In this document: positions 1 through 6,588 of the stretch, in pieces
Position numbering within the stretch: the first letter of the stretch is position 1
How the letters are laid out: every line of letters starts with the position of its first letter
UHGV virus genome: UHGV-0110025
DNA: 30,952 nt
Origin: a virus
Direction: 5' to 3' (one strand)
Notes under the pieces: generated by a model
The model's database searches: none
What the model was told of the DNA's origin: nothing
The model's input: only the letters and a program-made list of their open reading frames with translations
Program-made: the position numbers and the translations under genes

Positions 1-49
1 CATATAAAACAATTAGTTAATGCAATTTTTAATGCAGTGAATTGCAGCG

Positions 50-1099
50 TTACGCAACCTCTGCCGCCACGTTGTCGCCAATACACAGTGACAACGGATT
101 CAAGGTGACAGCTTGTTCAAGATGGTCAGGAGCAAAGTGCGCATACTTCATTGTTTCACGAATATTTGCGTGACCGAGTATCTTCTGGAGTACAAGGATA
201 TTGCCGCCATTCATCATAAAATGCGCGCCAAAGGTGTGACGTAAAACGTGCGTTTTCTGCCCTTCAGTCAATTCAATGTTTGTGAGTTTGAGCATCTTCT
301 TAAAGTCCTGATAGCAGGGCTTGAACATTCTTCCCTGACGTTCGGACAACTCGTCATACAGCCATTTAGGAATCGGAACCGTGCGATTCTTCTTACCTTT
401 GGTTTTGGTGAAAGTCAGCTTGCAGGGGGAAAGTTGGGGACGTGTAAGTCTCTCAGCTTCTCCCCATCGTGCGCCAGTAGCCAGGCACACCTTAACAATC
501 ATAGTAAGATTTTCTTTGCCATATTGTTCACAGGCTCGGAACAGCTCCGGGAGCTGAGACAAAGTTAGCCAGGACATTTCTTTCTCAGCTTCTTTGAATA
601 CACGAATCCCGTCCAGTGGATTGGGTAAACTCCATTCACCTAATCGCCGCAGTTCATTGAACACAGCTTCGAGGTATTGCTGTTCGCGATTGACAGTTAT
701 AGGTTTGGCGATCCATTTCGCCGGGTCTTTGTGATAGCCGTTGTCTATTTCGCCACGTAATCGACGGTCACGGTAATGAGCCCAATCTTTAGCGGTAAGA
801 CGAGATGCAATAGGGTCGCCCAACCCGTTACATACAATTTGAAGCTTAGCTAACCGCGACTTACTGGCGACCAACGCCTGTCCATGTAAATTATGCCAAA
901 GCTGGATAATCTCACTTAAGCGTCGGCGGTCTTCTTTCTTGCCGAGCCACGGCTTATCTTCACTCTCGCTTTTCGTAAATGCTTCGAATGCCTCGGCCTC
1001 ACCTTTGGTATTGAATTGCCGACGTATTCGCCGCCCTTCTCGCCCATTAGGATAAAGCTCACATAACCATTTGCCATTTTTTTGCTTACTTATAGTCAT
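50..1099 (-). CDS. int: Tyrosine site-specific integrase (P2/186-type)
   Basis: ORF 50..1147; start taken at the second Met (ATG 1099, MTISKQKNGKW...). C-terminal catalytic region LRHTFGAHF...GHANIRETMKYAH carries the R/H-x-x-R-H...Y tyrosine-recombinase signature. Lies at the prophage edge downstream of cI as in P2. Confidence 0.9.
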   Translation of the reverse strand: MTISKQKNGKWLCELYPNGREGRRIRRQFNTKGEAEAFEAFTKSESEDKPWLGKKEDRRRLSEIIQLWHNLHGQALVASKSRLAKLQIVCNGLGDPIASRLTAKDWAHYRDRRLRGEIDNGYHKDPAKWIAKPITVNREQQYLEAVFNELRRLGEWSLPNPLDGIRVFKEAEKEMSWLTLSQLPELFRACEQYGKENLTMIVKVCLATGARWGEAERLTRPQLSPCKLTFTKTKGKKNRTVPIPKWLYDELSERQGRMFKPCYQDFKKMLKLTNIELTEGQKTHVLRHTFGAHFMMNGGNILVLQKILGHANIRETMKYAHFAPDHLEQAVTLNPLSLCIGDNVAAEVA

Positions 1100-1121
1100 A
1101 ATGTCACCGAGGCAACTCTTA

Positions 1122-1460
1122 TCATTCGCAAAGTGCTGTCGCAGCATCCATTACGGGATCCAAAGGAATTTTTACTCCTTCATAATCCGGGCTATCTTTC
1201 CAAACAGTATCAATATCGCTCCCCTCAAGCTTTCCAGACTTTACACCATCAATAGCAAACCCATTTAATGGGTATCGGTCATCTGTTGCTTTGTCGTACA
1301 CAAAGGCATATCTACCATTAACACAAGACACCGTAGCTTTTTCAAAAGTTAACGGCCAATCATCACCAAACTTAGCACCGTCTAAATCCTGTGTTTTTTC
1401 AGCGGCTGATGCACCGAAAGAAAGTGAAAGAAATAAAGCTAAAAAAAGCTTACGTTTCAT
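1122..1460 (-). CDS. Small exported protein with cleavable signal peptide (moron between cI and int)
   Basis: Start at ATG 1460 (MKRKLFLALFLSLSFGASA|AEK...), AAGGGA Shine-Dalgarno 4 nt upstream. N-terminal basic-hydrophobic-AxA signal peptide and two Cys in the mature part. Sits 8 nt after the cI stop and 22 nt before the int start, lower GC than neighbours. Confidence 0.6.
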   Translation of the reverse strand: MKRKLFLALFLSLSFGASAAEKTQDLDGAKFGDDWPLTFEKATVSCVNGRYAFVYDKATDDRYPLNGFAIDGVKSGKLEGSDIDTVWKDSPDYEGVKIPLDPVMDAATALCE

Positions 1461-1468
1461 AATGTCCC

Positions 1469-2305
1469 TTATACGTGTTTTTCCAATGTGAAAATTACAG
1501 CACCTACTGGTGTGATATCTGTAATGCTGCATTCAAACTCGGCAGACTTATTTGACAACCTGACTTTTCCGCCGGGAAGACGAATTACATCAAAAACATC
1601 AAGAGCGCCGTCAATATCAATTAACCAACGCCCATTACTTATGTTCGAAGCAGAACGGTTGACAAGCCAAGAGGCTCCAACACCTTCAACAAAAATCAAC
1701 TCCTCTGAGTCAGAGGGTATCATCGAGGGGTCTGGATGCCATTCGCCAGCGTCCTTAAGCTCACCCGCTTCAAGGCGAAATTTTTTAATTGAAAAACTTG
1801 ATGTGACCATTTCTCTGTTAGTTCGCATTTGCCCCTTGCCGGTTGCTAACCATTCCAGCGAAACACCAGTATCAAGGGCACAAGTAACAACTACATCGCC
1901 TGGGAAAAAATCACGCCGAACCCATGTGCTAATTGTTCCAGATGATATACCGAGTAAATCACCCAGCTCCTTTTGCATAGAAAAACCGTAAGCATCAAGG
2001 ATGCGTCTCAGAACAGGTTTACCACCTGAAGCCATGACCTTTTCATAAAGCTCTTTGCCCTTCAGGGTCGCACGTGAAGAGTTTGCTTTTGCAAGCTCCC
2101 CTGTCACTAACCATCCGATATCTGCGCCCGTTTCAATAGCACATTCAACAAATACATTGCCCGGAACGCTATCTCTGGCAAGCCAACTGCTTATGTTGTT
2201 GGCATAAATACCAAGTTTTTCGCCAAGTTCTTTTTGCGAGCTAAGTCCATAAGCCGAAAGGATTCTTTCGATAGCCGGAGCCGCACCATCTCCAAATTTA
2301 GCCAT
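1469..2305 (-). CDS. cI: CI-type immunity repressor (186 CI-like) with tandemly duplicated N-terminal HTH domain
   Basis: Two internal repeats: ...ERILSAYGLSSQKELGEKLGIYANNISSWLARDSVPGNVFVECAIETGADIGWLVTGE and ...RRILDAYGFSMQKELGDLLGISSGTISTWVRRDFFPGDVVVTCALDTGVSLEWLATGK, each matching the phage CI-repressor HTH pattern. Divergent from the early lytic operon, upstream of int. Confidence 0.8.
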   Translation of the reverse strand: MAKFGDGAAPAIERILSAYGLSSQKELGEKLGIYANNISSWLARDSVPGNVFVECAIETGADIGWLVTGELAKANSSRATLKGKELYEKVMASGGKPVLRRILDAYGFSMQKELGDLLGISSGTISTWVRRDFFPGDVVVTCALDTGVSLEWLATGKGQMRTNREMVTSSFSIKKFRLEAGELKDAGEWHPDPSMIPSDSEELIFVEGVGASWLVNRSASNISNGRWLIDIDGALDVFDVIRLPGGKVRLSNKSAEFECSITDITPVGAVIFTLEKHV

Positions 2306-2425
2306 GTATCGCCACCAAAATTAATTTTCGCCATTGCAAAATTAAATTTCGCGAACTAAAGTGATGATTATCAACCACGATGCACATCAATGCAGTTCAC
2401 TACAAACAACAGGAGATAATGCGAT
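2306..2425. promoter_or_regulatory. Lysis/lysogeny switch region: divergent cI / early-lytic promoters and operators
   Basis: 120-bp intergenic region between divergent cI and the apl/cox-like gene. Candidate rightward promoter: -35 TTGCAA (2334-2339), 17-nt spacer, -10 TAAAGT (2357-2362). AGGAG Shine-Dalgarno at 2412-2416 precedes ATG 2426. Confidence 0.5.
2317..2352. repeat. Two direct-repeat candidate operator sites AAAATTAA(T/A)TTTCGC spaced 21 bp
   Basis: AAAATTAATTTTCGC at 2317-2331 and AAAATTAAATTTCGC at 2338-2352. The first contains a perfect 12-bp palindrome AAAATTAATTTT. The second overlaps the spacer of the candidate rightward promoter. Confidence 0.5.
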
Positions 2426-2797
2426 ATGTCAGATGCAAAATCAATCTCGACGCATGATTCGCAAAACTCACAAAATCAAACTGTGCTGTTAGATCCGGCT
2501 CAGTTTGATGCCATCGTTACCGCTATGCTGCCAGCTCTGCAGACAATGATCCGCTCCGCTATGTCAGACACAATGACAGTGAAAGACTTTGCCGCCACTC
2601 GCGGTGTAAGCGAGCGTCTGGTCTGGCAATGGCTTGATGAGGGAATCCTCCTCAAAGCTCCAACTAAAGACTTTTCCAACAAGGAAGAGGCTGGAAAACG
2701 AAGCCGCACCCTCGTAAACGTGAAAGCATGGCGCGACAAACTAACCCAGCAAGCGATTGATTGTCGCTACATCGACCACCGCATCGCTCTTAACTGA
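2426..2797 (+). CDS. Apl/Cox-like early regulator / excisionase candidate (HTH protein)
   Basis: First gene of the rightward early operon, divergent from cI, the position of 186 apl / P2 cox. Central HTH-like segment MTVKDFAATRGVSERLVWQWLDEG. Good SD. At 123 aa it is longer than Apl/Cox, so the N-terminus or identity is uncertain. Confidence 0.55.
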   Translation: MSDAKSISTHDSQNSQNQTVLLDPAQFDAIVTAMLPALQTMIRSAMSDTMTVKDFAATRGVSERLVWQWLDEGILLKAPTKDFSNKEEAGKRSRTLVNVKAWRDKLTQQAIDCRYIDHRIALN

Positions 2798-2829
2798 ATT
2801 TGATTATGCAAGTTAGAGGGAATTTAACC

Positions 2830-3339
2830 ATGTTTGATTTTCAGATTTCTAAACATCCTCACTATGACGAAGCGTGCCGGGCTTTTGCGCAGCGTCACAA
2901 CATGGCGAAGCTGGCCGAGCGTGCGGGTATGAACGTTCAAACGTTACGTAACAAGCTCAACCCAGAACAGCCTCACCAATTCACACCGCCTGAATTGTGG
3001 CTGCTGACTGACCTGACCGAAGACTCAACCCTCGTTGATGGCTTTCTGGCGCAAATACATTGTCTGCCATGCGTGCCGGTTAATGAGCTGGCTAAAGAGA
3101 AATTGCAGTCTTATGTGATGCGCGCAATGAGTGAACTCGGCGAACTGGCGAGCGGTGCGGTATCAAATGAACGTATGACCTCTGACCGCAAACACAGCAT
3201 GGTTGAGAGTGTTAATGCAGGCATCCGCATGTTGTCTCTGTCGGCGCTGGCGTTACAGGCGCGTCTACAGGCTAACCCGGCAATGTCGAGCGTGGTTGAT
3301 ACCATGACCGGCATCGGCGCAACATTTGGTTTGGTATGA
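2830..3339 (+). CDS. cII: CII-like lysogeny establishment regulator (186 CII family)
   Basis: MFDFQISKHPHYDEACRAFAQRHNMAKLAERAGMNVQTLRNKLNPEQPHQFTPPELWLLTDL... matches my recollection of the 186 CII family. Start placed at the internal Met (ATG 2830); the six-frame ORF begins at 2800. Confidence 0.8.
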   Translation: MFDFQISKHPHYDEACRAFAQRHNMAKLAERAGMNVQTLRNKLNPEQPHQFTPPELWLLTDLTEDSTLVDGFLAQIHCLPCVPVNELAKEKLQSYVMRAMSELGELASGAVSNERMTSDRKHSMVESVNAGIRMLSLSALALQARLQANPAMSSVVDTMTGIGATFGLV

Positions 3340-3346
3340 GGTGTTT

Positions 3347-3547
3347 ATGCTGAAAAATGAACCCTCATTCGCATCTCTGCTCGTTAAACAAAATCCAGGT
3401 ATGCATTACGGTCACGGCTGGATCGCGGGTAAAGATGGTAAGCGCTGGCACCCGTGCCGCTCTCAGTCTGATTTACTGGCTGGCCTCTCTACTCAAAAGC
3501 TGGGGGAATCATGGCTATCGAAGCTGTTTCCGCGACTATTCCGCTAA
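3347..3547 (+). CDS. fil: Fil-like small protein (phage 186 Fil family, cell-division inhibitor)
   Basis: MLKNEPSFASLLVKQNPGMHYGHGWIAGKDGKRWHPC... follows cII as in 186. Start ATG 3347 preceded by GAGGTG. Confidence 0.6.
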   Translation: MLKNEPSFASLLVKQNPGMHYGHGWIAGKDGKRWHPCRSQSDLLAGLSTQKLGESWLSKLFPRLFR

Positions 3548-3849
3548 AAGCGGGTGAACGTCTGGCCGGTCTCAATCATGTAGCTGAATTGCGCGCGAGA
3601 TATTGGGGCGATAGTTGGAAAGAGGTTGAGCGCTTTGTCGATGATATGCGCGATAAACGTGACTCTCAATTTGAAGAAAATAATCGGGCGCTGGCCGCTA
3701 TTTTCTTTCTGGCAAAAATACCGGCGGCTCGTCATGAGCTCGAATTAAGTGAGCTGACTACTGACGAGAAAAAAGCGCTTATTACAGCGATGAATCATTT
3801 TCGTGCAGTAGTGAGCTTATTTCCCAAACGGCTAACCATGCCGAATTAA
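3511..3849 (+). CDS. Hypothetical early-operon protein
   Basis: 112-aa ORF in the early operon between fil and the DUF2732-like gene. No motif I recognise. Overlaps the fil 3' end, so the start is uncertain. Confidence 0.45.
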   Translation: MAIEAVSATIPLKAGERLAGLNHVAELRARYWGDSWKEVERFVDDMRDKRDSQFEENNRALAAIFFLAKIPAARHELELSELTTDEKKALITAMNHFRAVVSLFPKRLTMPN

Positions 3850-3915
3850 CCAAAACAGAAATTAATGGCGTAAACCCGCCGGGCATTTTATTGCCCAAAA
3901 TCAGGAGAGTTAGTT

Positions 3916-4143
3916 ATGCGTAATACCGAACCCCGTAGTTTTAATACTGATAGTGACACGCTGGCCGTGCTGCTGACAGATGCAAAAAAAGAAGAACGCA
4001 AAGACCGCGCACTCGCCGTTTCAATCCGTCTTGAGGCGCTGGCTATCCATATCACTAAAGAGGGCATGAACGGCACCGAAGCCGCTGAACTGCTGCGCCG
4101 TGAGGCCACCCGCTACGAAAACGAATCACAGGAGCTGCACTAA
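3916..4143 (+). CDS. Small acidic early protein (DUF2732-like, P2-family)
   Basis: 75-aa ORF with strong SD (AGGAGAG) upstream. Composition and position resemble the small conserved ORFs preceding gene A in P2-like phages. Family assignment is from memory only. Confidence 0.5.
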   Translation: MRNTEPRSFNTDSDTLAVLLTDAKKEERKDRALAVSIRLEALAIHITKEGMNGTEAAELLRREATRYENESQELH

Positions 4144-4364
4144 TGGCCGACGCAATGGATTTAGCACAACTGCGCGAGCAGGAAGACCGCGAGCGCCACA
4201 TCAGCAACGCGCGCAGCCGTATAGCAGCGTCCTCTCCTTTCCTCTGCGAAGAATGTGACTCACCAATCCCGGAAGCTCGCCGTGCTGCAATTCAGGGGGT
4301 GGCATTTTGCGTGACTTGTCAGCAAATCGCAGAGCTAAAAAACAAACACTATCGGGGGGTATAA
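4143..4364 (+). CDS. TraR/DksA-family C4 zinc-finger protein
   Basis: Four Cys in a C-x2-C ... C-x2-C arrangement (CEECDSP...CVTCQQ) in a 73-aa protein. ATGA start/stop overlap with the upstream ORF. Confidence 0.7.
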   Translation: MADAMDLAQLREQEDRERHISNARSRIAASSPFLCEECDSPIPEARRAAIQGVAFCVTCQQIAELKNKHYRGV

Positions 4365-4365
4365 A

Positions 4366-6588
4366 TTGGCTGTTCAATTCGCTTATCCGTGGAATGCTCC
4401 ACGATCGGCTATAGCCAGCCCATACCTTACTTATAAGCAACAGCATCGCCGCGACCGTATGTTCGCGGCGATGCTGCATGCTAAAAAGGTGCTTTCTCTC
4501 CAGCCCGACTGCGTGCGGTTAGATGTTTATCGCACTGCGGCAGTGCTGGAGCAAAATCAGGGCATTCAACGAGCCAATGCCTTTTTGATCAGCTTCTGCA
4601 AAAAGGCATTGCCGCGTCTTGAATTGGTCGCAAAAAAATACGAATGCGCGGGTATCAACAGCAAGGTATCAACCTCTGTTTTTGGAAGTCATTTTGATAC
4701 CCAGCTTATGCAATATCTGGCGTCACGCATGGTTAATATGGTCGCCCGATATAACCGCCTCCCGGATATGTCGCGCGCTGATGTTGACCTGTTGGCCGCC
4801 GATATTGCTAATTTCATTCGTGGTGAACTTGCCAACATTAATGACCACGGATTCGGCGAGCTTAAAACGCTGTACACCTGGTATAATCGTGCTGGCTTTA
4901 TTTCCCTCCAGTTCAACGTTATCCCCCCCCATTGGGATCGGGTTGCAAAAAAATATGTTGGCGCGGATGAAATCGCACCGGCTATCGCCAAGATGTTTAA
5001 CGATGGGTGGTGGCGTGGTCGTTTGCGCCGGGTTGCAGCTACGTGGCGCGAACACCTGCAAATTGCAGTCGGCAACGTCAGCAAGAAAAAAAACACCTAT
5101 GCGAGTAAAAACTGCGTGACTGACTGGCGTGAACAAAAGCGCCGAACTCGTGAATTTCTCAAAGGTCTGGATCTCGAAGACGAAGACGGCAACCGTATCA
5201 GCCTGATTGAAAAATATGATGGCTCAGTTGCTAACCCTGCGATTCGCCGCTGTGAGCTCATGACTCGCATTCGTGGGTTTGAAAACATCTGTAATGAGCT
5301 CGGTTATGTCGGTGAGTTTTACACTCTGACCGCGCCGTCGAAATATCACGCCACGACTAAAGCCGGTTACCGTAACAGCAAATGGAGCGGTGCCTGCCCG
5401 GCTGACACGCAAAACTATCTAACTGATATCTGGGCGCGTATCCGTGCCAAACTGCATCGGGAAGATGTCCGTATTTTCGGTATTCGTGTCGCCGAGCCCC
5501 ATCACGACGGTACTCCACACTGGCACATGCTGATGTTCATGCTGCCGGAAGATGTTGAATATGTTCGCTCCATCGTCCGTAAATACGCGTGGAAAGAAGA
5601 CCGCCGCGAACTGAAAAGCGATAAGGCAAAAAAAGCACGTTTCCACGCCGAGTCCATTGACCCGGAGAAAGGCAGCGCAACCGGCTATGTTGCTAAATAC
5701 ATATCAAAAAATATCGACGGTTATGCTCTCGATGGTGAAACCGATAATGAAAGCGGTGAACTGCTGAAAGAGACAGCCCCCGCCGTTTCAGCATGGGCTT
5801 CGCGCTGGCACATCCGTCAGTTTCAGTTTATCGGTGGTGCGCCGGTGACGGTTTACCGTGAGTTGCGTCGCCTCGCTGATACCGAAACCGCGCACGGACT
5901 GAGCGTTGAGTTTGCCGCCGTCCATGATGCCGCCGACGCTGGTGACTGGGCTGGTTATGTTAATGCGCAGGGTGGACCGTTTGTCCGTCGCGATGATTTA
6001 CAGGTGCGCACACTGTATGAACCACGTACCGAGCTTAATCAGTACGGTGAGGAAACGGTATGTATTAAGGGGGTCTACGATTCCTCCATAGGTGCAGGTA
6101 GCCCGATTTTAACCCGGCTCACTCAGTGGAAGATTGTTCCGAAGCATGCTGTTGATTTGGCCGTTGACCTTCAGGACGGCAAAGCCGTCCCTCGGAGTTC
6201 TGTCAATAACTGTACGGGAAGTGAAAGCGATCCACCGATACTGGATTTAACAAAACCACAGAGTCGGCGCGAAAGACGAGAGCTGACCAACCGACTCAGG
6301 AAGCAAAAACCAGCAATACGGCGAAAATTCGTCCACGGAATGGATGAGCAAAACGCAGCTATAGCGAAAACTATCGACGAGATACATCTGACAACCAGCA
6401 TCACAATCAGCCGGGGCGAAGCCCTGCACCTGATGGCAGGTGGGAAAAGCTGTTTTGATGGCAAATGGCTAAGGGGAACATCCAAAGGGGAGATATTTTC
6501 CACTGTCCCATCGAACCAAGCTAAAGCTAGTAAAATCCTCAATCGTGTTGCAGCGTTGGTAGAAGCATCAAAGTTAATAGATGATTAA
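4366..6588 (+). CDS. A: Replication initiation endonuclease (P2 gpA family, rolling-circle HUH nickase)
   Basis: 740-aa ORF with a histidine-rich metal-binding region EPHHDGTPHWHMLMF and a downstream tyrosine motif GYVAKYISKN, typical of gpA initiators. Apparent TTG start at 4366 after a G-rich SD; an in-frame ATG lies at 4459. Confidence 0.9.
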   Translation: MAVQFAYPWNAPRSAIASPYLTYKQQHRRDRMFAAMLHAKKVLSLQPDCVRLDVYRTAAVLEQNQGIQRANAFLISFCKKALPRLELVAKKYECAGINSKVSTSVFGSHFDTQLMQYLASRMVNMVARYNRLPDMSRADVDLLAADIANFIRGELANINDHGFGELKTLYTWYNRAGFISLQFNVIPPHWDRVAKKYVGADEIAPAIAKMFNDGWWRGRLRRVAATWREHLQIAVGNVSKKKNTYASKNCVTDWREQKRRTREFLKGLDLEDEDGNRISLIEKYDGSVANPAIRRCELMTRIRGFENICNELGYVGEFYTLTAPSKYHATTKAGYRNSKWSGACPADTQNYLTDIWARIRAKLHREDVRIFGIRVAEPHHDGTPHWHMLMFMLPEDVEYVRSIVRKYAWKEDRRELKSDKAKKARFHAESIDPEKGSATGYVAKYISKNIDGYALDGETDNESGELLKETAPAVSAWASRWHIRQFQFIGGAPVTVYRELRRLADTETAHGLSVEFAAVHDAADAGDWAGYVNAQGGPFVRRDDLQVRTLYEPRTELNQYGEETVCIKGVYDSSIGAGSPILTRLTQWKIVPKHAVDLAVDLQDGKAVPRSSVNNCTGSESDPPILDLTKPQSRRERRELTNRLRKQKPAIRRKFVHGMDEQNAAIAKTIDEIHLTTSITISRGEALHLMAGGKSCFDGKWLRGTSKGEIFSTVPSNQAKASKILNRVAALVEASKLIDD

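Follow-up and report, generated by a model that had tools for sequence, protein, structure and literature searches.

A DUF2511 (YebY-family) gene between the repressor and integrase genes of a 186/PSP3-type prophage, a probable cargo gene of the lysogenic operon

The virus genome UHGV-0110025, a stretch of 30,952 nucleotides (nt) referred to here as the window, carries on its minus strand at positions 1122–1460 an open reading frame (ORF) encoding a 112 amino acid (aa) protein of the DUF2511/YebY family, a homologue of PSP3 gp28 and of PHROG 2950. This ORF is very probably a cargo gene in a lysogenic operon of the order cI, ORF, int, with a product that would be a small, acidic, Sec-exported protein of the YebY/MlbQ fold. 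All three genes are on one strand at the left end of the window, with the CI immunity repressor gene at 1469–2305 (minus strand; 278 aa, two tandem PF07022 helix-turn-helix (HTH) domains and a PF16452 C-terminal domain) and the tyrosine integrase gene int at 50–1099 (minus strand; 349 aa), the latter starting at the ATG at 1099 (MTISKQ...) and not at 1147. The gap between the cI stop codon and the ORF ATG is 8 nt and that between the ORF stop codon and the int ATG is 22 nt. The first junction (1461–1471, minus strand) consists of the cI stop codon (1469–1471) and the 8-nt spacer, with an AAGGGA Shine-Dalgarno sequence overlapping the cI stop, and the second (1100–1121, minus strand) contains a GGTGA ribosome-binding site. 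The same three coordinates are annotated in RefSeq for Escherichia coli A38 as 'phage repressor protein CI', 'DUF2511 domain-containing protein' and 'site-specific integrase', and in the stretches compared the window is 99.9–100% identical to the E. coli A38 prophage located beside yfiB/dgcN. An earlier reading made from the letters of this DNA alone (the sequence-only reading) had described a 113-aa protein of lower GC content encoded between cI and int on the same strand. Placement and strand agree with these coordinates and with the A38 annotation, and the ORF does have 113 codons, although the stop codon had been counted in the protein length. Its GC content is indeed low, at 40.7% (27.4% at third codon positions) against 45.0% for cI, 47.2% for int and 51.4% for the whole window. 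That reading had also taken P2, where int directly follows the repressor gene, as its point of comparison; the window is a 186/PSP3-type prophage (Peduoviridae, Eganvirus-like) encoding CI, CII, Fil and an Apl-like protein, and the valid comparison is with 186 or Fels-2.

The start codon at 1460 is backed by the full-length PHROG match (1–112 of 112), by a conserved MK.. start in all homologues and by the AAGGGA Shine-Dalgarno sequence. A start at the upstream ATG at 1532 was rejected, since the resulting frame of 136 aa would share sequence with the cI gene and this ATG is not a conserved start codon, and the antisense plus-strand ORFs at 1071–1268 and 1291–1491 were without support. A search of positions 1–3000 on both strands against Rfam at E ≤ 0.1 gave no match, so that an RNA element in or antisense to the ORF is unsupported.

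The ORF product matched Pfam PF10709 (DUF2511/YebY) with an E-value of 1.4e-16 and 61.1 bits against a cut-off of 21, covering profile positions 5–87 of 87, and PHROG 2950 was matched end to end (E 1e-52, residues 1–112 on profile 1–112). A sequence comparison with E. coli YebY (PDB 7N0J) gave an E-value of 9.5e-8, whilst NCBIfam returned no match. A homology search, proposed as a check by the sequence-only reading, thus found DUF2511, PHROG 2950 and PSP3 gp28. The Pfam and YebY E-values, together with a ratio of nonsynonymous to synonymous substitution rates (dN/dS) of approximately 0.15, establish the ORF as a real coding gene and not a chance frame.

Codons 1–19 (1404–1460, minus strand; MKRKLFLALFLSLSFGASA) encode a predicted Sec-type signal peptide with an n-region MKRK, an h-region LFLALFLSLSF (11 residues, mean Kyte-Doolittle value 2.5) and a c-region GASA. 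Across 53 distinct alleles position −1 is A or S, position −3 is A, S, V or T and rarely I, and the AEK that begins the mature protein is nearly invariant; this pattern places the predicted cleavage between ASA and AEK, not one residue later, and bears out the signal peptide cleaved after ASA that had been described from the sequence. The mature product would have 93 aa, a mass of approximately 10.2 kDa and an isoelectric point of 4.3. These features suggest a Sec-exported, periplasmic accessory protein, and the E. coli relative YebY has been localized experimentally to the periplasm, with most family members carrying signal peptides (PMC8689200). Residues C46 and C111 align with the YebY disulfide cysteines C48–C113, a disulfide that is predicted here; C46 is invariant in the 53 alleles and C111 is present in all except a C111W variant. 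A YPLN motif is common to the ORF product and YebY. An AlphaFold2 (AF2) model built from 16 close homologues (predicted local distance difference test (pLDDT) 69.6, predicted template modelling score 0.61) matched only 7N0J (E 2e-5, TM-score 0.72) and MlbQ when searched against the PDB with Foldseek; since its confidence is moderate (pLDDT 69.6) the model was used for fold only and not for surface analysis. By profile match, cysteines, signal peptide and fold, the predicted product is a member of Pfam DUF2511, and it is likewise a member of PHROG 2950. The position that defines 'YebY proper', beside copD and two genes from copC, is not that of the ORF, whose neighbours are cI and int.

Both the gene and its location between int and cI have been recorded before, as PSP3 gp28 and PHROG 2950. 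Homologues lie between int and cI in phages PSP3 (orf28/gp28, 89% aa identity), SEN1, SW9, SI22, Midge (92%), vB_EcoM-613R3 and RCIP0057, with 72–92% aa identity overall, and the window copy is identical to RefSeq WP_001407049.1 of E. coli A38. The Midge record annotates its homologue as 'putative periplasmic protein', and the PSP3 deposit already pointed out an E. coli homologue of orf28. A 2021 Journal of Biological Chemistry paper reported that in several Enterobacteriaceae a YebY homologue is flanked by genes for a XerD-like recombinase and for a CI repressor (PF07022) (PMC8689200). No function for the phage copies was found in the literature, and the gene is not treated either in a review of P2-like regulatory regions or in the SEN1 paper. 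In proteomics data, a DUF2511 peptide from Enterobacter cloacae matches the chromosomal YebY type and an E. coli entry consists of an accession only and cannot be assigned. The present analysis adds to this record the depth of the linkage, the intactness of all copies, the cassette behaviour of the gene, the alternative cargo and the lack of a detected promoter or terminator of its own, each set out below.

Conservation was examined in 65 loci from IMG/VR together with phage records and genome loci, a scan of genome contigs having contributed just two. The order cI, ORF, int was found in all 65 IMG/VR loci, in the phage records and in the genome loci, the cI–ORF junction of the window is kept in related loci, and all 70 homologous copies in the fetched loci (70/70) are intact and encode 112–113 aa. 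The sequence-only reading had named absence or disruption of the ORF across related prophages as grounds for abandoning its view, and within this immunity type neither was seen. Median dN/dS values (Nei-Gojobori, 783 pairs) were 0.15 for the whole gene, 0.11 for the mature part and 0.46 for the signal peptide, the signal-peptide codons thus evolving faster than the mature codons, and 26 of the 93 mature positions are invariant over alleles whose synonymous sites are saturated. These data indicate purifying selection on the mature exported protein. They also bear on the idea that the ORF is a passenger without function, decaying or carried along by its linkage to the immunity region. For this idea the C111W variant lacking the disulfide cysteine (a 101-member cluster, two IMG/VR loci and E. 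coli S3) and a low GC content suggestive of foreign origin could be cited; with every copy intact and of constant length, dN/dS at 0.11–0.15 and those 26 mature positions invariant, the conservation data make that idea unlikely and we give it almost no credence.

The depth of the association was assessed in a library of 1.84 billion representatives, which held 427 family members at E ≤ 1e-3 and only 8 at E ≤ 1e-10. Genomic context was looked up for nine of the nearest 50%-identity cluster representatives; eight of the nine are in P2-like phage contexts, at least six of them directly behind a repressor-type HTH gene, and the context of the remaining one was uninformative. For the copies from Pantoea, Winslowiella, Yersinia, Edwardsiella and one metagenome, the gene immediately ahead encodes a CI repressor with either one HTH or two in tandem, and three more copies are in P2-like elements beside gpD or Ogr, one of these directly behind a small HTH protein. 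These nearest representatives are 32–37% identical to the window protein, the Pantoea copy being 57% identical. As the linkage between repressor and DUF2511 genes is kept at 32–37% identity it must be old, and the description of the gene as 'inserted' between cI and int does not hold in the sense of a recent insertion. The phage clade forms a separate deep lineage together with other P2-like prophage copies, and recent capture of a host yebY was rejected, the identity to YebY of the yobA-yebZ-yebY (AZY) type being only 25–32%.

Two loci of Winslowiella toletana (L072 and L073, positions 1–5400) show a degraded P2-like prophage adjoining a chromosomal copC-copD-yebY operon. This remnant contains an integrase fragment, a CII fragment, cI, DUF2511 and a gene for a bPH/SHOCT protein. 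The two Winslowiella DUF2511 copies are only 32% identical and so are not the outcome of a recent duplication, and the adjacency of prophage and copper operon may be a coincidence or may reflect an attachment site.

The ORF is the most variable gene of the module. Where integrases are 91–98% identical to that of the window, the ORF product ranges from 49 to 100% aa identity and its types are shuffled relative to cI type. In DNA comparisons of loci L065 and L066 with the window, cI is 77–98% identical (77% only in the last comparison window, at the 3′ end) and int 77–100% identical, against 53–67% for the ORF, and locus L030 is recombinant inside the ORF. At the DNA level the gene thus behaves as a sharply bounded allelic cassette between flanks that are mostly 85–100% identical. 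This integrase type is present in 68 of 5,426 complete E. coli genomes, and the slot between cI and int is occupied in 44 of these by the window-type allele, in 17 by a 66%-identical allele, in six by a 51%-identical allele and in one by a different gene. The 66%-identical allele occurs in both E. coli and Salmonella. Since the alleles coexist within one species, their divergence does not track the host. One common allele combines C111W with R3C in the signal peptide, marks a sizeable E. coli sub-lineage and is represented by the 101-member protein cluster (P0002), by IMG/VR loci L028 and L029 and by E. coli S3 (L090, positions 73–411); S3 is one of 11 listed complete genomes of E. coli that all have junction DNA 91.6% identical to that of the window. 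Replacement of either disulfide cysteine of YebY abolished its expression, and C111W removes a disulfide cysteine, so that the protein of this lineage may be destabilized or inactive.

The slot itself is variable in content. Phages 186 and Fels-2 have cI followed directly by int, without the gene. In E. coli E21 (locus L089, positions 4130–4534) DUF2511 is replaced by an unrelated exported protein of 134 aa (PHROG 3807, two cysteines, without a Pfam match), whilst Escherichia sp. E1V33 and one IMG/VR locus carry both this 134-aa protein and DUF2511; in L006 and L033 (positions 3570–3974) the 134-aa protein is encoded upstream of DUF2511. Remote homology between DUF2511 and the 134-aa cargo was considered and rejected, hhalign giving a probability of 24% with only the signal peptides aligned. 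The junction of cI with the 134-aa gene in L006 and L033 (TAAGGGAACTTATGAAACGT) is almost the same as the cI–DUF2511 junction of the window, and that of E21 differs. A 166-aa bPH_3/GRAM and SHOCT domain protein (PHROG 2700) is encoded between DUF2511 and int in four IMG/VR loci (L038, L039, L048 and L049, approximately 4361–4861) and also after DUF2511 in the Winslowiella remnant (L072 and L073, positions 5475–5975). In Klebsiella phage 4LV2017, which has a tandem-HTH CI (L078, positions 1083–2900), the slot holds an unrelated 349-aa ORF with a weak match to PHROG 10040, and its cI–int interval also includes approximately 770 nt of unannotated DNA. These arrangements suggest that the cI–int junction serves CI-type Peduoviridae generally as a site for cargo.

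From strand and packing, co-transcription of the ORF with the repressor gene is the obvious expectation. In the 186 annotation cI and int form one lysogenic operon, transcribed from pL in lysogens and from the CII-activated pE during establishment, and by analogy the ORF, 8 nt behind cI, should be transcribed with the repressor in both lysogeny and establishment. Again by analogy with 186, pR and the leftward maintenance promoter pL would be expected in the switch region between cI and the apl/cox-like gene (2306–2425); a consensus scan of this region found no promoter site, and pL was not placed confidently by eye either. A CII-binding inverted repeat (ATGTTTG ... AAACAT; 2830–2857, plus strand) at the start of cII aligns with the annotated 186 pE/CII site, and this conserved repeat marks the likely pE, which would read leftward through cI, the ORF and int. 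The overlap of the AAGGGA Shine-Dalgarno sequence with the cI stop codon makes translational coupling plausible. Around the ORF, a consensus scan, itself a weak test, gave no sigma-70-like promoter site and no convincing terminator. Its counts did not exceed those for shuffled sequence, and spacers of 8 and 22 nt offer hardly any space for such signals. With no signals of its own detected and bounded by short spacers, the ORF is better described as operon-embedded cargo than as an autonomous moron. The sequence-only reading had called it a moron; its atypical GC content, its absence from 186 and Fels-2 and its replacement in E21 suit that term, but with no promoter or terminator detected the strict definition does not apply. 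The broader claim of an exported accessory gene positioned with the repressor is sustained by the predicted signal peptide and the tight same-strand packing, and that interpretation was thus right in substance and imprecise in its use of 'moron' and 'inserted' and in its P2 comparison.

The neighbouring regulatory genes show further features of this phage type. The gene in the Apl/Cox position (2426–2797, plus strand) encodes a 123-aa protein of the PSP3 gp30 type that has no match in Pfam. A 2011 review of P2-like regulatory regions described the PsP3 protein in this position as a singleton without detectable domains; in the Midge record the corresponding protein is given Cox-like status by HHpred. 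The CII gene (PF06892; 2830–3339, plus strand) encodes a product 92% identical to 186 CII. The window CI has 278 aa and a tandem HTH, compared with 192 aa and a single HTH in 186 CI. The 2011 review ascribed to PsP3 CI a 'longer C-terminal domain', whereas the Pfam matches suggest instead that the longer PsP3-type CI has a duplicated N-terminal DNA-binding domain. DUF2511 is not confined to tandem-HTH repressors; in Yersinia and on one metagenomic contig it follows a CI protein with a single HTH. The prophage sits immediately downstream of yfiB (in yfiR-dgcN-yfiB), a site also occupied by the E. coli E21 prophage, which has the same integrase type.

As to what such a gene might do, production of the protein would follow that of CI: the maintenance promoter would supply it in lysogens and the CII-activated pE, at a higher level, just after infection. 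In the periplasm it could act as a stoichiometric binding or blocking protein protecting the new or established lysogen. The most likely mode would be superinfection exclusion, its target being either a part of an incoming related phage or tailocin that is exposed to the periplasm or an envelope factor required by such a phage for entry of its DNA. Divergent alleles exchanged as a cassette would then be specificity variants. Our tentative preference is for a periplasmic, lysogen-protecting blocker of this superinfection-exclusion type. It is favoured because the ORF is the most polymorphic gene of the module and is exchanged as a sharply bounded cassette, because its alleles coexist in one host species with invariant YebZ and YobA, because the slot takes other exported cargo, and because repressor-linked prophage genes are often exclusion genes, with a periplasmic precedent in Sim of phage P1. 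Genes co-expressed with prophage repressors frequently function in exclusion or defence, as do lambda rexAB, P22 sieA/sieB and repressor-adjacent genes of mycobacteriophages, and P1 Sim is a processed periplasmic exclusion protein. A more general proposal, possible but doubtful, is that P2/186-like phages carry in their lysogeny operon an old and conserved family of periplasmic YebY-fold proteins, exchanged as specificity cassettes, that exclude competing phages or P2-related tailocins at the envelope or, in a variant, hijack the host CopD/YebZ inner-membrane protein.

Several points weigh against exclusion as the function. No experiment and no homologue ties DUF2511 to phage exclusion, a PADLOC search at E ≤ 0.1 found no family for the ORF product or for two alternative cargo proteins, and none of the papers searched links yebY and yebZ with phage. 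The two characterized relatives, both of which act through binding outside the cytoplasm, point elsewhere, YebY to copper import and MlbQ to lantibiotic binding. The low overall dN/dS gives no sign of pervasive positive selection, allele diversity could be just old variation linked to the immunity region, and the C111W lineage may carry a dispensable protein. Transcription of the ORF from pL or pE is drawn from the 186 analogy, with pL itself not located.

The alternative that survives best is a copper-import brake, in which the phage protein, like YebY, damps copper uptake through the host CopD/CopC pair (YebZ/YobA); an altered copper load, mar-regulon induction and changed NDH-2 metallation in the lysogen would follow, a case of classical lysogenic conversion. 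The ORF product shares Pfam family and fold with YebY, and this is the only activity demonstrated for an enterobacterial member of the family: cellular copper fell when YebY was co-expressed with YebZ, and a safety-valve action on import was proposed for YebY (PMC11923076). The host genera named for members of the phage clade (Escherichia, Salmonella and Enterobacter) belong to the bacterial family in which YebY homologues are most common, the AZY operon is on the E. coli chromosome, and approximately half of representative YebY-family genes adjoin copC and copD. A rough neighbour-joining tree placed the phage clade and enterobacterial AZY YebY in the same large gammaproteobacterial group, and the cI–DUF2511 remnant of Winslowiella lies directly beside copC-copD-yebY. 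However, the low identity to AZY-type YebY and the separate, deep phage lineage given above count against a shared role, as does the lack of effect of a single yebY deletion on a copper reporter. Alleles 49–66% identical coexisting in one species with essentially invariant YebZ and YobA are hard to explain with a conserved host target, and the interchangeable cargo of the slot is without a copper link. On balance the copper brake is rather unlikely.

An immunity role resembling that of MlbQ would have the product sequester an envelope-targeting peptide (a bacteriocin, microcin, lipid II binder or host antimicrobial peptide), rendering lysogens more resistant. MlbQ is the only other characterized family member and is proposed to confer self-resistance by direct binding of the lantibiotic NAI-107; the AF2 model of the ORF product matches MlbQ structures, and allelic diversity could reflect different ligands. 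Identity to MlbQ is however only 19–22%, and MlbQ is a membrane-anchored lipoprotein encoded with ATP-binding cassette (ABC) transporters, whereas the ORF product is predicted to be soluble and has no transporter partner. Expression from a repressor operon would suit a scarce target better than bulk sequestration, and lantibiotics generally do not reach the periplasm of enterobacteria. We regard such immunity as improbable. Less probable again is a role internal to the phage, in which the product or merely the translated spacer would serve lysogeny, by setting the ratio of cI to Int expression or by conditioning the envelope during establishment, with no benefit to the host. The position behind the repressor gene is remarkably stable in very divergent P2-like phages and the tight spacing suggests translational coupling in an operon, but 186, Fels-2 and many other CI-type phages manage without the gene, it can be replaced by an unrelated exported protein, and purifying selection acts on the mature exported protein and not just on presence of a reading frame.

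Very divergent Peduoviridae have retained a gene for a YebY-like periplasmic protein immediately after that for the repressor. Approximately half of the DUF2511 family lies outside copper operons and is without an assigned role, a half that the function of the phage gene could inform. The gene would gain in wider interest if the cassette turned out to be a novel exclusion system of the periplasm or to modulate copper import by the host. If the general proposal of exchangeable specificity cassettes were true, either version would constitute a previously unrecognized class of superinfection exclusion and would give a first physiological handle on the non-AZY half of DUF2511.

Several known systems can be compared with the ORF and its product. 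The repressor-linked accessory genes lambda rexAB, P22 sieA/sieB, P1 Sim, P2 old/tin/fun and those of mycobacteriophages are alike in their placement, show similar presence/absence and allele polymorphism among related phages and include, in P1 Sim, a protein that is likewise periplasmic; they differ in having no sequence or fold relationship to the ORF product, which has no PADLOC match and for which exclusion is hypothetical. MlbQ of Microbispora (PDB 2MVO and 6QFP) is alike in family, fold, disulfide position and extracytoplasmic location, with ligand binding proposed for MlbQ, and differs in its lipid anchor, its long linker and the ABC transporters encoded with it (PMC8689200), in addition to the low identity noted above; the ORF product has a predicted type I signal peptide without a lipobox cysteine and is encoded in a phage. 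E. coli YebY (7N0J), the product of the third gene of the yobA-yebZ-yebY copper-uptake operon, shares DUF2511, a signal peptide, a length of approximately 110 aa, two cysteines, the YPLN motif and the alpha/beta fold, and the ORF product differs from it in an identity of approximately 30%, in lying inside a prophage lysogeny operon and not beside copC/copD, and in belonging to a separate deep clade. From PSP3 gp28 and its phage homologues nothing substantive differs: they are the same gene in the same position (int - gp28 - cI), of which the window copy is one allele.

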